The position numbers and the translations under genes are program-made. A stretch of DNA of 64,000 nucleotides from Clostridia bacterium (lineage in GTDB: Bacteria; Bacillota; Clostridia; Christensenellales; DTU072), in contig JAZRZM010000005.1 of assembly GCA_045601385.1 (NCBI GenBank), positions 823 to 64,822 on the forward strand, written 5' to 3'. The notes beneath the pieces are model-generated. The model saw nothing but the letters and a program-made list of their open reading frames with translations. It had not been told where the DNA came from and did no database searches. This document shows, one piece after another, positions 23,870 through 28,712 of the stretch (position 1 is the stretch's first letter; the number at the start of each line of letters is the position of its first letter).

Positions 23870-23895
23870 AAAAAAAGGTGCCTTTCGGCACCCTT
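23870..23895 (-). terminator. rho-independent terminator after recR
   Basis: The minus strand reads GGGUGCC-gaaa-GGCACC followed by U7. Confidence 0.75.
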
Positions 23896-23922: not shown

Positions 23923-24501
23923 TTATAAATCTTTTCGATCGGACAAAGCCCTTTGCAAAGTGACTTCGTCGGCATATTCGATTTCCGAACCGACCGAAAT
24001 ACCGTACGCAAGGCGCGTGACGCGGATCCCGAGGGGCTTGATTTGTCCGGCGAGGTAAGACGCCGTCAGTTCGCCGCTGATGTCGGGGTTGGTGGCGATA
24101 ATGACTTCTTCCACGCCGACAAGGCGCGCCATCAGTTCCTTGATACGGATATCGTCTACCCCGACGCCGTTCCGAAAGTCGATCGTACCGTGCAAGACGT
24201 GATACACGCCTTTGTACGAACCGAGTTTTTCAAAAGGCGCGATGTCCTTTGGTTGCGCCACGACGCAAATGATTTTTTTAGAGCGGCTTTGGCAAAATTC
24301 GCAAAGGTCGTCCTCGGTATAATTGCCGCATTCGGGGCAAAATCGGACGTTCCTCTTTACTTGCAAAATCGCCTCGGCAAACTCCTCCGCCCTGCTTTGA
24401 TCGCCCTCGACAATGCTGTACGCATACCGAAGAGCCGTTTTTGTGCCGACTCCGGGCAAAGCGCGAAAGCACGCGGTCAGGCGAGAAATCGAGTCGGTCA
24501 T
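23923..24501 (-). CDS. recR: recombination protein RecR
   Basis: LPGVGTKTALRYAY (HhH), zinc finger CPECGNYTEDDLCEFC, and a Toprim region. 192 aa. Confidence 0.95.
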   Translation of the reverse strand: MTDSISRLTACFRALPGVGTKTALRYAYSIVEGDQSRAEEFAEAILQVKRNVRFCPECGNYTEDDLCEFCQSRSKKIICVVAQPKDIAPFEKLGSYKGVYHVLHGTIDFRNGVGVDDIRIKELMARLVGVEEVIIATNPDISGELTASYLAGQIKPLGIRVTRLAYGISVGSEIEYADEVTLQRALSDRKDL

Positions 24502-24502
24502 A

Positions 24503-24850
24503 TCAGAAGAGACCTCCGCCCAGTCCGCCCGTCAGCGGTCCCATAACCTTTTGATATTCTTCTTCCACACCTTCCATCGCTTCGTTGAACCCGGCGAGAA
24601 TCAAGTCCTGCAACATCTCCACGTCGTCCGGATCGACCGCCTCTTTGGCGATTTTGATGCCCGTCAGTTTGCGGTCGCACGTCATTGTGACTTCGACCAT
24701 GCCGCCACCGGCCGTACCGACGACTTCCGTCTCCGCGAGTTGCGCTTGCGCTTCCTGCATATCCGCTTGCATCTTTTGCGCCTGCCGCATCAGTTGTTGC
24801 ATATTTCCGCCGCCGCCGAAGCCGCCGCCGAATCCGTTGAATTTACCCAT
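24503..24850 (-). CDS. ybaB: YbaB/EbfC family nucleoid-associated protein
   Basis: 115 aa. NMQQLMRQAQKMQADMQEAQ...GGGMVEVTMTCDRKL...DPDDVEMLQDLILAGFNEA is canonical for the family. Confidence 0.9.
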   Translation of the reverse strand: MGKFNGFGGGFGGGGNMQQLMRQAQKMQADMQEAQAQLAETEVVGTAGGGMVEVTMTCDRKLTGIKIAKEAVDPDDVEMLQDLILAGFNEAMEGVEEEYQKVMGPLTGGLGGGLF

Positions 24851-24882
24851 TTTGTTTTTCTCCTTGTCCGTTTATTTTTTTC

Positions 24883-25398
24883 TTACCAATACAGCGCGTT
24901 TACATCGGGCTTAATTATGACTCCGTTATTTTGGCTGTCGGGATCGAAAGGAAGAACTGCGTCTTCACGATACCCGTCTGCGGATACAACCTCGATAACA
25001 TAGCCGTTTTTCTTGTTTTGCGACCGACTCCAAACTTCCGTCATAACGTAAAAATGCGCTCCGTTTTCGACGGAAAACGTCTTCGATTTATCCATAGAAA
25101 GGACGCTGCCGTCCTCGCCGATAACGCGCAAAACGTGCCACGTCGCGCCTTTACTGACTTCGACGACCGATTCAAGATCGACCGAGGTCGTCCCGTCTTC
25201 GTATCGATAGACGAGTACGTCGCCGTTGCAACGGCGCAAAACCGCGCTTTCCGTCGCCGCGGCATTGGTTATGACCGCCTCTTGTTTATCCAAATAGGCT
25301 TTATGCCCGTAAACCGCGCCCGTCAGACTGCCGATTACGACGATCGCAAGTATGACGATAAAAAGAACCGTCCCCTTTCCCGATATTTTTTCGTTCAT
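24883..25398 (-). CDS. hypothetical single-pass membrane protein (171 aa)
   Basis: ATG at 25398 with GGGAAGGA upstream. It overlaps the upstream stop by 4 nt. TM helix VLFIVILAIVVIGSLTGAVY is followed by a beta-rich ectodomain. Confidence 0.6.
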   Translation of the reverse strand: MNEKISGKGTVLFIVILAIVVIGSLTGAVYGHKAYLDKQEAVITNAAATESAVLRRCNGDVLVYRYEDGTTSVDLESVVEVSKGATWHVLRVIGEDGSVLSMDKSKTFSVENGAHFYVMTEVWSRSQNKKNGYVIEVVSADGYREDAVLPFDPDSQNNGVIIKPDVNALYW

Positions 25399-26438
25399 TT
25401 CCTTCCCTTCTTTGTTTGCCCTTCTTCGACGCCGAGGCACCTTGCGACGTATTGCTCGTCCTCGGAAAAGCCGTAGAACTCCGCAATCGGCAAGCACTCT
25501 TCGTCCGTGACCGTCGCAACTTCCGTTCTTTCCGTCATAAATTTGGAAAAACCGCCTATTTTGCAACCGTCTCCGATAAACAAAACGCCCTCGCTCTTTA
25601 TTGTACGCACCGTCTCCGCGTCACATTCCCGCAACATGGCAAAAACGAGTTCCGCCGTCCGCTCGTACAAGAGAGAGACCGTCTCAAAGACGTCTTTCGC
25701 CGCAAATCCGACCGCTTTCGGCTTGTCGCAAATGGCATCCTTGCAAACAAATTGTACCCTCGTGCAGTCGCCTTTATAAAGAGAAAAATATTTTCCGATG
25801 TCGATCGTATATCCGTCGTCGGGAACAGCCGTCCGTTCGTGCGAAATTTCGGCATTCTTGCAGCCCGGCACCGTTTCGCTCCGCTTACATACTTCTTCGA
25901 TAAGAAGACGCGCCGTCTCCGACGTGCCGAAATTAAGAGCATAGGCTTTTTTAATAACGCCCGACTCGGTAATAACCGCCTCAACGCCGACTGTGCCGAT
26001 TTCCACGATAAACCGTTTTCCCTCTTTTTGCGCGATCTGCGACAAAACGTACGGTTTTTCAATCAAATCGACGTTGCGAAAACCGCTGTCAATAAAGGCT
26101 TTTTCGACGGACGAGCGATAAGCATCGTCCGCAAAAGACGGTATCAGCACAAAAACATGGGGTTTTTTCGTCCCGAAAAGACGGGAAAAACAAACTTTTA
26201 TAAGCAATTTTGCGCCCTGTACGTCGTTGATTCCGCCGACGCCGAAAGGACGAACGAAAACTTTATCGCCCGAAAGACCGTCTTTCGAAGCGATCGCGCT
26301 TTTTCCGAACGAAACGAGGGACGGAATCGCCGTCTTCTTGCGAACGACCGCGTTTTTTTCCCGCGCAAGCAATTTTCCGTCGCCGTACACGCAAAAATAC
26401 TCCTTGTCAAAAGAGACGACCGCTCTTATTTCCGACAT
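25395..26438 (-). CDS. MreB/actin-fold homologue with degenerate nucleotide-binding motifs
   Basis: 347 aa, colinear with MreB. VRPFGVGGINDVQGAKLLI aligns with LRPMKDGVIADYETT, and IEKPYVLSQIA with IEEPFAAAIGA. The ATP-binding motifs themselves are lost: phosphate-1, phosphate-2 and adenosine motifs read SFDKEYF, EIGTVGV and IGDGCKI. Confidence 0.65.
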   Translation of the reverse strand: MSEIRAVVSFDKEYFCVYGDGKLLAREKNAVVRKKTAIPSLVSFGKSAIASKDGLSGDKVFVRPFGVGGINDVQGAKLLIKVCFSRLFGTKKPHVFVLIPSFADDAYRSSVEKAFIDSGFRNVDLIEKPYVLSQIAQKEGKRFIVEIGTVGVEAVITESGVIKKAYALNFGTSETARLLIEEVCKRSETVPGCKNAEISHERTAVPDDGYTIDIGKYFSLYKGDCTRVQFVCKDAICDKPKAVGFAAKDVFETVSLLYERTAELVFAMLRECDAETVRTIKSEGVLFIGDGCKIGGFSKFMTERTEVATVTDEECLPIAEFYGFSEDEQYVARCLGVEEGQTKKGRK

Positions 26439-26989
26439 AGTATCCCCTCCTCATGCAGTATTTTTTCGAGTTTTTCGGTGGGCAAGCCGACGATATTGTC
26501 ATAACTGCCCTCAAAGTGCTCCACCACTTGCCCGTCCTGAATGGCATAGGCGCCGGCTTTATCGTACACGCAATAACCGTCTATATACTTTTCGATATCT
26601 TCCGCCGTCAAGTCGCGGAAAAAAACGGTCGATTTTTCAAAGCATATCCGCTCTTTTTTGTCAATACGAACATATAATCCGCTGATAACCTCGTGCGCCT
26701 TACCCGAGAGCGCCGCCAGCATGGACGCCGCTTCTTCTCTGCCGTGCGGCTTGCCGAAAATCTTTCCTTCGGGCGAAACGACAATGGTATCGCACGCAAT
26801 CACCACGTCGCCTTCGGTAACGGCGCGCCCTTTTTTGGCGGCAATCGCCGACGCTATCCTTTCCGGTTCGGTTTCGCAAACCGATTCGTCTACCGCCGGA
26901 ATGCGGATAAGGTATTCGTCGAACAACTTTTTCAGCAGTTCTTTTCGCCTCGGAGAAGAGGACGCCAGCACAACGACGGGCGTCGGCAT
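26426..26989 (-). CDS. maf: Maf-like nucleoside triphosphate pyrophosphatase
   Basis: VVLASSSPRRKELL, ACDTIV and KAGAYAIQ motifs. 187 aa. Confidence 0.9.
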   Translation of the reverse strand: MPTPVVVLASSSPRRKELLKKLFDEYLIRIPAVDESVCETEPERIASAIAAKKGRAVTEGDVVIACDTIVVSPEGKIFGKPHGREEAASMLAALSGKAHEVISGLYVRIDKKERICFEKSTVFFRDLTAEDIEKYIDGYCVYDKAGAYAIQDGQVVEHFEGSYDNIVGLPTEKLEKILHEEGILCRK

Positions 26990-26991
26990 GT

Positions 26992-28503
26992 TTACAGAAT
27001 ATCGAGATTCTTTTGGAAGGCGCGGCGGAATTCGCTCACCGCCGAAAGCGCGTCCTGAATTTCCAACGAGCAGTCGGCAGTCGCTTCCGTCTTCAAAATG
27101 ACGCTTTCGCCGAGAATGTCGCAGTTCAGCGTCGTGATAACGCCGTTTGAACTACGGTCAAAACACTCGGCAATGCGCACCAGAACGCCCAGTTTCCGAA
27201 TCGCGTCGATGTCGTCTTCTTTCAGCATGGTCAGGTATTGCTGAATGTCGGGGCTGTCGAGCGCCTGACTCGTATGCATACCGGCTACGATCGCCGCCAT
27301 CACCAAATCCTTTTGCTGAATTCCGTATAGATTACTGTTCAAAATAAAGTAAAACGAATGTTTGTGATGTTCGTAGTACTTAAAACTGCTCCCGATGTCG
27401 TGCAGTTGCGCCGCGACGCGCAGGACTCTGACGTAAGCGCGGGGGAGTTTGTGCAGCACTTTCAGTTGACGATACAGTTGCAACGCCAATTCGAAAACGT
27501 GCTCGGAATGCTGAATGTTCATATTGAAAATGGTCAGCATGTTATAGATACTGTGCCCGAGGATATCGCTGATGGAGCGCTCGTACGTAGACGGCAACGC
27601 ATAGTGGAACATAACCCCTTCCCTGAGTCCGGCGCCCGAAATCACGATCTCCTTGAACGACGTCGCCTCTTCAAAGGCTTTTATGACCGTCATCGCCGCC
27701 GGCAGAATCTCCGCGCGCGCCGAAGAAATACCCTTGATACGGAGCGACTTGCTCGTATCGACGACTTTCAAAGAATTGTAAATGCTGTCGAATTCGTCGA
27801 AAGGAATGTGGTAATTATGCGCCATGTTCAACGGATACCGCTTCAAGCGGCGACTGATTTTACCGAGATTACGGATCGAACCGCCCACCCCGATAAACTG
27901 CGTGTCTTCTTCCAGCTCGTTCAGCCAATCCAGTTTTTTGATATGCTCGGTGATATACTCTTTCATCTTTTCGATGCGTTCGTTCGGATCCTGCACTTCG
28001 GCAAACTTCTCCGTCAACGTCACCGCGCCGAACGGCAAACTCTCCTGGTTGAGCATCAGTCGGCGGTTGTAATGAATGACTTTTACGCTCGCGCCGCCGA
28101 TATCCACGATCACGCCGCGCGGCACGTCCATCGAATTGATGACGCCCGTATAAACGAGGTTTGCTTCTTCTTCTTGCGTCAAAACGGTGATTTTGATACC
28201 GCATCCGTTCAGAATCTCGTCGACAAAGGTCTTTTGGTTCTTCGCTCTGCGCACCGCCGCGGTCGCATAGGCAAACACTCTGTTTACCTTGTGACTTTCG
28301 TACAGGTTCTTGAACATGTTGAGCGTCTTGACCATTTGTTGAATGCGAATCGGGCGCAAAAATCCGTCCGTTTCCATCCCCTGCGCAAGGCGTACCGGCT
28401 CTTTCAACTCGTCGATTACGTTGAAATACCCTCCGTCGATAATATTGACGATCACAATACGCGCCGTATTGGATCCGATGTCGATAATTGCTATTTTTTC
28501 CAT
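26992..28503 (-). CDS. Ppx/GppA family phosphatase with C-terminal HD domain
   Basis: IAIIDIGSNTARIVI and DIGGASVK (ASKHA fold), plus LHDIGS in the HD region. 503 aa. Confidence 0.85.
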   Translation of the reverse strand: MEKIAIIDIGSNTARIVIVNIIDGGYFNVIDELKEPVRLAQGMETDGFLRPIRIQQMVKTLNMFKNLYESHKVNRVFAYATAAVRRAKNQKTFVDEILNGCGIKITVLTQEEEANLVYTGVINSMDVPRGVIVDIGGASVKVIHYNRRLMLNQESLPFGAVTLTEKFAEVQDPNERIEKMKEYITEHIKKLDWLNELEEDTQFIGVGGSIRNLGKISRRLKRYPLNMAHNYHIPFDEFDSIYNSLKVVDTSKSLRIKGISSARAEILPAAMTVIKAFEEATSFKEIVISGAGLREGVMFHYALPSTYERSISDILGHSIYNMLTIFNMNIQHSEHVFELALQLYRQLKVLHKLPRAYVRVLRVAAQLHDIGSSFKYYEHHKHSFYFILNSNLYGIQQKDLVMAAIVAGMHTSQALDSPDIQQYLTMLKEDDIDAIRKLGVLVRIAECFDRSSNGVITTLNCDILGESVILKTEATADCSLEIQDALSAVSEFRRAFQKNLDIL

Positions 28504-28712
28504 ACTCTCCGTTCCTCCGAAAACCGTGAATAAGTAACGATTCCTTTCGTTCCCTCTTTACTAAAACAAATTATAATCCTTTTACAAATTCTTTGCAAGA
28601 GGGTATCGATATATTTTACCGTTTTTTTACCGTTTATTTTTTGAAGCGCGTTTATATCGCTTCGGCAAAGGGAATAAAAAAAGAAAACGACAAAAAAGAG
28701 GGAGAAAAAAAG

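Follow-up and report, generated by a model that had tools for sequence, protein, structure and literature searches.

A degenerate MreB homologue retained under purifying selection in a Christensenellales lineage without a detected Rod system

MreB is usually seen as an ATP-dependent polymer that steers the Rod complex. The locus described here raises the question of what is left for an MreB homologue to do once the signatures of its nucleotide site and the rest of that complex can no longer be found. It lies in a 64,000-nucleotide (nt) stretch, referred to throughout as the window, of contig JAZRZM010000005.1 (positions 823 to 64,822 of the forward strand) from GCA_045601385.1, the metagenome-assembled genome (MAG) of a Clostridia bacterium of the order Christensenellales. 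The gene in question, here called mreBL, encodes an MreB-like protein of 347 amino acids (aa) and stands between maf and the gene for a 171-aa membrane protein (TM171). The favoured reading, which was given a probability of roughly 0.6, is that mreBL encodes an MreB-fold protein under purifying selection in a lineage without the rest of the Rod system, in which the site residues have been replaced and are not conserved, and that its role is a nucleotide-free structural or adaptor one.

Family and predicted fold of the MreB-like protein

Profile searches matched mreBL to Pfam PF06723 (MreB_Mbl) with 52.5 bits, against a gathering score of 27, with residues 16-315 colinear with model positions 14-307. 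The NCBIfam MreB models TIGR00904, PRK13927 and PRK13929 gave 47.5-47.7 bits, which is below their cut-offs of 293-515, and the Pfam and NCBIfam models for FtsA, ParM, PilM and EutJ gave no match at E <= 1. The best sequence matches in the PDB, found with HMMER, were also MreBs (E ~1e-6), and sequence identity to solved MreBs is 16-19%.

An AlphaFold2 model built on 55 orthologues had a mean predicted local distance difference test score (pLDDT) of 92.9 and a predicted template modelling score of 0.90, with values falling to a mean pLDDT of 70-75 at residues 191-210. When this model was used as a Foldseek query, ranks 1-25 contained nothing but MreB or Mbl entries (E 1e-19 to 1e-23, query template modelling scores 0.69-0.79). 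Actins appeared after all of the MreB entries at E ~1e-14, and MamK was first seen at rank 39. As modelled, mreBL keeps the complete MreB fold. Membership of a non-MreB actin-fold (ASKHA) family was rejected, as MreB_Mbl is the sole Pfam family matched and the top 25 Foldseek entries are all MreB or Mbl; the comparison with other actin-fold families that the initial annotation had proposed thus grouped the protein with MreB, and not with EutJ, PilM, FtsA or ParM, in Pfam, NCBIfam and Foldseek.

Word-indexed homologue searches with mreBL and with TM171 returned only the query. Homologues of mreBL were collected by exhaustive HMMER search and by genome searches, and related loci were retrieved via the neighbouring ppx gene. 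On the MreB_Mbl profile, mreBL is outscored by the DnaK of its own genome (HSP70, 820 bits; G000:C3:103575-104612) at 75.6 versus 52.5 bits, and calling the presence or absence of MreB by score alone may therefore pick the wrong gene in the Christensenellales lineage studied.

Nucleotide site of the MreB-like protein

The MreB phosphate-1, phosphate-2 and adenosine loops, D-x-G-T, D-x-G-G-G-T and G-G-G, read SFDK, EIGTVG and GDG in mreBL, and the three replaced motif strings reported in the initial annotation were found at exactly the residues given there (9-15, 146-152 and 288-294). The changes are to charged or beta-branched residues, with Gly to D11 and Thr to K12 in the first loop, GGG-T to T-V-G in the second, and the middle Gly to D290 in the third. 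Proper alignment did not restore any of the three loops: the ATP motifs stayed lost in HMMER comparisons with PDB MreBs, including that of Geobacillus stearothermophilus, and in MAFFT alignments of 88 and of 72 sequences. In the AlphaFold model the former loop positions coincide with turns between strands.

The hydrolysis motif E...T-X-[D/E], which is conserved in 95.8% of MreBs and required for release of inorganic phosphate (PMC9597168), is altered as well. Its positions in Caulobacter crescentus MreB (E140, T167 and E169) correspond to K128...G151-V-E153 in mreBL, so that two of the three are lost. Residues with which every characterised MreB binds and hydrolyses ATP have been replaced in mreBL: the Asp, Gly and Thr of phosphate-1, the catalytic Glu, the Asp and the Gly-Gly-Gly-Thr of phosphate-2, and the middle Gly of the adenosine loop. 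Ppx, the actin-fold enzyme encoded in the same operon, retains DIGSNT. On these comparisons mreBL most likely no longer cycles nucleotide, binding and hydrolysis both presumably having been lost. With the fold kept and the site residues gone, the view first put forward, that this is an actin-fold pseudo-ATPase acting as a scaffold or regulator, is very likely, and a structural or regulatory role is suggested.

Conservation of site residues among orthologues

Alignment of the orthologues separated three grades of nucleotide site. Canonical MreBs carry DLGTAN at phosphate-1, the catalytic EEP, DIGGGT[TS]E at phosphate-2 and GGGALL at the adenosine loop. In the families without MreC, the phosphate-1 motif D-x-G-[ST], a glycine-rich phosphate-2 loop (G-x-G-[TNV]-T-[ED]) and an adenosine loop that is mostly GGG are all kept, and the catalytic Glu is replaced in 39 of 39 sequences (by Ser in 32). 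In the window's genus, phosphate-1 passes from DFGS through DFDS or SFDS to SFDK, TFDD or AYDE, the Glu is replaced by Arg, Ser or Lys, and neither the phosphate-2 nor the adenosine loop is conserved. Counted by column, Glu at the E140-equivalent position is present in 6 of 9 canonical sequences, 0 of 39 of the broad clade and 0 of 24 of the genus, and the phosphate-2 Asp in 9/9, 6/39 and 4/24, respectively.

The replacement residues vary even between close mreBL orthologues, which have SFDK, TFDD or AYDE at the first loop and VEIGTVGVE, VDVEEATAE or VDMGAKQTE at the second. Conservation in canonical MreB is highest at the 14 site columns (entropy 0.39 versus 1.35 for the other columns); in the window's 12-member clade they are near background (1.32 versus 1.57 elsewhere).

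In a maximum likelihood tree the genus, the 12-member clade without the phosphate-1 Gly and the window's five-member subclade were all recovered (100/99 in each case), with the genus clade nested within the MreC-less group. Within the genus clade, no terminal branch is longer than that of the window's mreBL (1.07). Read from alignment and tree, degeneration of MreB in the Christensenellales appears to be stepwise. The catalytic Glu, and mostly the phosphate-2 Asp, are missing in every sampled MreC-less family and would have been lost first, with the glycine loops going later, within the genus. The MreBs of the MreC-less families at the intermediate grade may still bind nucleotide, and the series ends with the window's subclade.

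Descent of mreBL and loss of the Rod system

The own genome, a 2.17-Mb assembly estimated to be 95.8% complete, was searched for the remainder of the elongation machinery. No canonical MreB was found, the sole other MreB_Mbl match being DnaK, and profile searches did not find MreC, MreD or RodZ_C. The initial annotation had noted that no mreC or mreD follows mreBL; this holds for the locus and for the rest of the assembly, and the genome-wide search for a canonical mreBCD that it had called for found none. The only SEDS protein is encoded in the dcw cluster, and of the two transpeptidase-domain matches one is in that cluster too and the other in a 769-aa frame. The other parts of the elongation machinery, namely mreC, mreD, the second SEDS protein (RodA), the elongation class B penicillin-binding protein (PBP2) and RodZ, have been lost from the window's lineage.

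The loci retrieved with ppx came from uncultured Christensenellales MAGs of gut, rumen and digesters, including uncultured Christensenella sp. and Candidatus Stercoripulliclostridium. The order ppx-maf-mreBL was found at all 20 genus loci and at more than 60 species loci, and the linkage of maf to mreB or mreBL was kept at every locus examined. Families with canonical MreB have (ppx-)maf-mreB-mreC-mreD-pbp2 on one strand, as in locus L094 (ppx-maf-mreB-mreC-mreD-PBP). Because canonical relatives carry ppx-maf-mreB-mreC-mreD-pbp2, mreBL is the positional orthologue, or direct descendant, of the mreC-linked mreB. By genomic position, the upstream half of the arrangement (ppx-maf-mreB) is conserved and the downstream half (mreC-mreD-pbp2) is missing in the own genome. 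The suggestion that mreBL might be a paralogue with a new role was accordingly rejected, both by the ppx-maf slot that it shares with canonical mreB and by the absence of a canonical MreB.

A survey of 121 Christensenellales genomes with completeness of at least 90% found MreC in 59 of them. Families with MreC have an MreB scoring 420-500 bits and two to four SEDS matches. Among the rows listed, a family in which MreC was not found has, almost always, a single SEDS match and no MreB other than a divergent one (best E 1e-19 to 1e-116). About half of the sampled families yielded no MreC, and cell shape predicted from the presence of mreB would be wrong for about that share. Public records name the divergent MreBs of MreC-less families 'rod shape-determining protein' (e.g. 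MBO8424247.1), and annotation thus assigns 'rod shape-determining protein (MreB)' in organisms without a detected Rod system.

Five MreC-less genomes with one SEDS match each, G051, G083 and G130 of family f28 and G088 and G113 of family f34, have four or five MreB_Mbl matches, and DnaK may account for one of them. Among these matches, several score 350-390 bits and lie in tandem (e.g. G083:C1:3831-6927), an arrangement that recalls the multi-MreB sets of Spiroplasma.

Selection on mreBL

Intact mreBL open reading frames (ORFs) of 320-347 aa were present in 23 of the 24 genus genomes, and the genome without a match is 69% complete. The ratio of nonsynonymous to synonymous substitution (dN/dS; Nei-Gojobori) was 0.065-0.10 over six close species pairs in the genus; for the same pairs maf gave similar values (0.08-0.22) and ppx lower ones (0.02-0.04). 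Because dN/dS is low, mreBL was taken to be a working protein, and a pseudogene or chance frame was rejected on these values and on the intact orthologues. Identity between subclades of the genus is 22-36% for mreBL and 66-81% for ppx. Residues with a structural part in the fold (G45, A48, P64, G119, G284 and G289) are invariant, and a basic segment near residues 32-39, with the consensus VVRKKSxxP, is typical of the genus.

Comparison with known systems

Fold, length, colinearity, the (ppx-)maf slot and the residues with a structural part in the fold (G45, A48, P64, G119, G284 and G289) are common to mreBL and canonical MreB (PF06723; C. crescentus 4CZJ, Thermotoga maritima 1JCG and G. stearothermophilus 7ZPT). 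The differences are that mreBL is without all of the nucleotide-binding and hydrolysis signatures, that its equivalent of the membrane-insertion loop is shortened, and that its genome is without detected MreC, MreD, RodA, PBP2 or RodZ. The divergent MreBs of other MreC-less Christensenellales, such as that of Candidatus Stercoripulliclostridium (MBO8424247.1), are ppx-maf-linked orthologues of mreBL.

The nearest characterised case is Spiroplasma MreB3 (7E1C/7E1G), which is without the E...T-X-[D/E] motif, binds AMPPNP and polymerises on nucleotide binding (PMC9597168). Like mreBL, it is a natural MreB without the hydrolysis motif in a cell without a Rod complex. MreB3 keeps its phosphate and adenosine loops, however, whereas the binding loops of mreBL are gone, and MreB3 belongs to a set of five paralogues in a swimming organism that has no wall, whereas mreBL is the sole MreB homologue of a walled Clostridia-type cell.

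Actin-like folds that have lost nucleotide binding and serve as structural partners include TsaB (YeaZ) and the cytoplasmic domain of GspL/EpsL. They belong to other families of the superfamily; none of them is MreB-derived, and none is known to stem from a polymerising cytoskeletal ATPase. By analogy they could offer a working model for the mechanism of mreBL.

On the usual route to a coccus, mreB is lost first, as an early step (review PMC6925525). In the window's lineage the order is reversed, as the Rod complex is gone and mreB is kept under selection after losing its nucleotide site. This reversal suggests that the MreB fold has a second function, one that would need neither ATP nor the elongasome, and the sequence from canonical MreB, through loss of the catalytic Glu, to loss of the binding loops provides a natural series for finding it. 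No account of an MreB without its motifs in Christensenellales that are without a Rod system turned up in the literature searches.

Proposed role and alternative explanations

As proposed here, mreBL would no longer cycle nucleotide and would act as a static, nucleotide-free structural or adaptor protein, organising the remaining envelope synthesis through parts of the MreB surface that lie outside the active site. It would most likely act at or close to the divisome, since only the septal FtsW-FtsI pair and a penicillin-binding protein of class A size remain. Several points weigh against this proposal. The location at the divisome is guessed from the machinery that is left. The absences of genes depend on a MAG that is 95.8% complete, and its relatives agree with them. 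The adenosine-loop residues G289 and G291 and the acidic E153 after phosphate-2 are still present, and a weak or altered nucleotide site is possible for that reason. Lastly, the loop of mreBL that aligns with the hydrophobic membrane-insertion loop is shortened, variable and not conserved, and a conserved hydrophobic insertion loop was not supported.

A monomeric regulator, for instance a partner controlling Maf or Ppx, is an unlikely alternative to a cytoskeletal scaffold. It would account for ppx-maf-mreB(L) being the one linkage that survives everywhere, with genes overlapping or 2 nt apart, and possibly for the subclade-specific 14-aa insertion within residues 191-214. The maf-mreB linkage is ancestral, however, and is found with canonical MreB too, and direct interaction is not implied by it.

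Quite unlikely is a protein that still depends on nucleotide, holding ATP or GTP in a rewired pocket and undergoing nucleotide-driven polymerisation as Spiroplasma MreB3 does. The fully retained fold, the residues G289, G291 and E153, and the precedent of MreB3, which binds nucleotide despite having lost catalytic residues, speak for such a pocket, but in mreBL the binding loops themselves are replaced (D11, K12, T-V-G and D290) and site-column entropy is near background. A rewired site is improbable above all because the replacement residues differ among close orthologues, unlike what would be seen in a conserved alternative pocket.

The model put forward in the initial annotation, in which mreBL and a translationally coupled TM171 form a two-component module replacing MreBCD, is very improbable and was largely refuted by synteny. 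As predicted there, TM171 is a single-pass membrane protein with an N-terminal transmembrane (TM) helix; its model (pLDDT 78) has this helix at residues 7-38 and a beta-rich domain outside, together with a short, basic tail on the cytoplasmic side through which a partner in the cytoplasm might be contacted. The overlap of the two genes at ATGA in the window and their adjacency in five species also favour the module. However, TM171 homologues occur in 27 of 28 genus genomes, and at all six inspected loci outside the subclade (L101-L106) TM171 lies directly upstream of ybaB-recR and far from mreBL. It adjoins mreBL only within the window's five-species subclade, where the ATGA overlap is confined to the window genome and the genes of the other four adjacent cases are 2-16 nt apart without overlap, and mreBL is conserved far past the range of this adjacency. 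Nor is there any similarity of TM171 to MreC: alignment with nine Christensenellales MreCs (PF04085) gave an hhalign probability of 3.7%, no Pfam match was obtained, and Foldseek returned nothing at E <= 0.001, with weak Ig/cadherin-like sandwiches only. TM171 was rejected both as a shrunken MreC (on the hhalign value and the want of a significant fold match) and as a dedicated partner of mreBL (on the genus-wide synteny). It belongs to a separate TM171-ybaB-recR unit, outside the mechanism of mreBL, and its dN/dS is about 0.2.

That mreBL is a functionless leftover drifting to loss after the Rod system vanished is scarcely credible, for although its low within-genus identity beside that of ppx, the long terminal branch of the window's protein and the existence of MreC-less genomes (e.g. 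G034 and G045) with no MreB-like match beyond DnaK strength would all fit, it is opposed by the intact frames, the low dN/dS, the invariant structural Gly, Pro and Ala, and a very confident AlphaFold2 model, which implies coherent covariation.

The ftsA slot of the genus

The dcw cluster has the order FtsI-murE-mraY-murD-ftsW-murA-ftsQ-[366-aa ORF]-ftsZ. Searches with PF14450 and TIGR01174 found no FtsA in the own genome, and PF14450 found none in two congeners. The 366-aa ORF in the ftsA slot had no Pfam match; it matches the FtsA genes of other families directly (E 1e-4 to 1e-7), and its alignment with TIGR01174 is weak but colinear. At the phosphate-1, phosphate-2 and adenosine positions it reads FFNS, CINEKNTD and VGSDD, where FtsA in other families, whether or not they have MreC, shows [ED]IG[TS], D-x-G...T[DN] and mostly GGG. 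Its within-genus identity is 20-33% and its dN/dS 0.06-0.10; it, too, is under purifying selection. The possibility that mreBL stands in for a missing FtsA was weakened by this divergent FtsA homologue in the ftsA slot and by the presence of SepF in the own genome.

Judged by their motifs, neither of the two actin-family cytoskeletal proteins of the genus has kept its nucleotide signatures. It is conceivable, but doubtful, that the genus, and perhaps the whole family, has turned both bacterial actins nucleotide-free, with the MreB and FtsA relics forming a static, ATP-independent scaffold for FtsW-FtsI, the one cell-wall synthase set remaining. If true, the actin cytoskeleton of the whole lineage would have gone from dynamic to passive.

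A SpoIIGA-like protease gene lies after ftsZ (L107:12085-12840, G000:C3). The own genome has no separate SpoVE, since it has a single SEDS protein.

Locus organisation and neighbouring genes

The features of the locus are collected in Table 1. A promoter-like site and a terminator-like hairpin bracket the six-gene block from ppx to recR, and Pfam assigns names to five of the six genes. Coordinates and spacing confirmed the earlier description of six genes on one strand with gaps of -13 to +32 nt: ppx and maf are separated by 2 nt, the maf stop overlaps the mreBL start by 13 nt, and the gaps TM171-ybaB and ybaB-recR are 32 nt and 1 nt. The ATGA shared by the mreBL stop and the TM171 start was likewise read in the sequence, with a Shine-Dalgarno-like run (GGAAGG) upstream. 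Since TM171 goes with ybaB-recR genus-wide and adjoins mreBL only in the five-species subclade, the six-gene packing is peculiar to this subclade and brings together two older units, ppx-maf-mreB and TM171-ybaB-recR.

Table 1. Positions of the genes, signals and former site motifs of the mreBL locus (window coordinates unless otherwise given)
Feature	Position	Strand	Evidence and remarks
ppx, Ppx/GppA family exopolyphosphatase	26992-28503	minus	Pfam Ppx-GppA 180.8 bits; TIGR03706 274.8 bits, under its 307 cut-off; first gene of unit
maf, Maf nucleotide pyrophosphatase family	26426-26989	minus	Pfam Maf 168.8 bits
mreBL (MreB-like ORF), 347 aa	25395-26438	minus	Pfam MreB_Mbl 52.5 bits; degenerate nucleotide site
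TM171, 171-aa membrane protein	24883-25398	minus	N-terminal TM helix and beta-rich outside domain
ybaB/ebfC	24503-24850	minus	Pfam YbaB_DNA_bd 118.8 bits
recR	23923-24501	minus	Pfam RecR domains and Toprim_4
Sigma-70-like promoter match, 5' of ppx	28570-28598	minus	Consensus match only, 10/12 positions
Terminator-like hairpin and T-run, 3' of recR	23874-23895	minus	9-bp stem, 5 G-C pairs; graded strong
Former phosphate-1 loop SFDKEYF, mreBL aa 9-15	26394-26414	minus	Canonical MreB DLGTANT; between model strands 5-10 and 14-19
IEKP, mreBL aa 126-129	26052-26063	minus	K128 in place of catalytic Glu (C. crescentus MreB E140 equivalent; second E of canonical EEP)
Former phosphate-2 loop EIGTVGVE, mreBL aa 146-153	25980-26003	minus	Canonical DIGGGTTE; T167 equivalent is Gly
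Former adenosine loop IGDGCKI, mreBL aa 288-294	25557-25577	minus	Canonical TGGGALL
mreBL segment aa 191-214, holding 14-aa insertion	25797-25868	minus	Alignments; insertion only in five-species subclade; lowest-confidence part of model
366-aa ORF in ftsA slot (ftsQ-X-ftsZ)	G000:C3:13780-14877 (L107:9781-10881), outside window		Very divergent FtsA homologue

The neighbours 3' of mreBL vary among relatives and include a ~450-aa two-TM protein, a multi-TM protein followed by a ~875-aa gene, and minD-minE look-alikes. The multi-TM protein and the ~875-aa gene are, by sequence, presumably a CDP-alcohol phosphatidyltransferase and valS. The label 'Wzz-like' for the ~450-aa two-TM protein, which follows mreBL in other members of the genus, was dropped, as no such Pfam match was obtained. 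TM171-ybaB-recR (window 23923-25398) is a genus-conserved trio, and some species have the TM171 part at the N-terminal end of a longer protein (529-544 aa) whose C-terminal domain is DUF6273.

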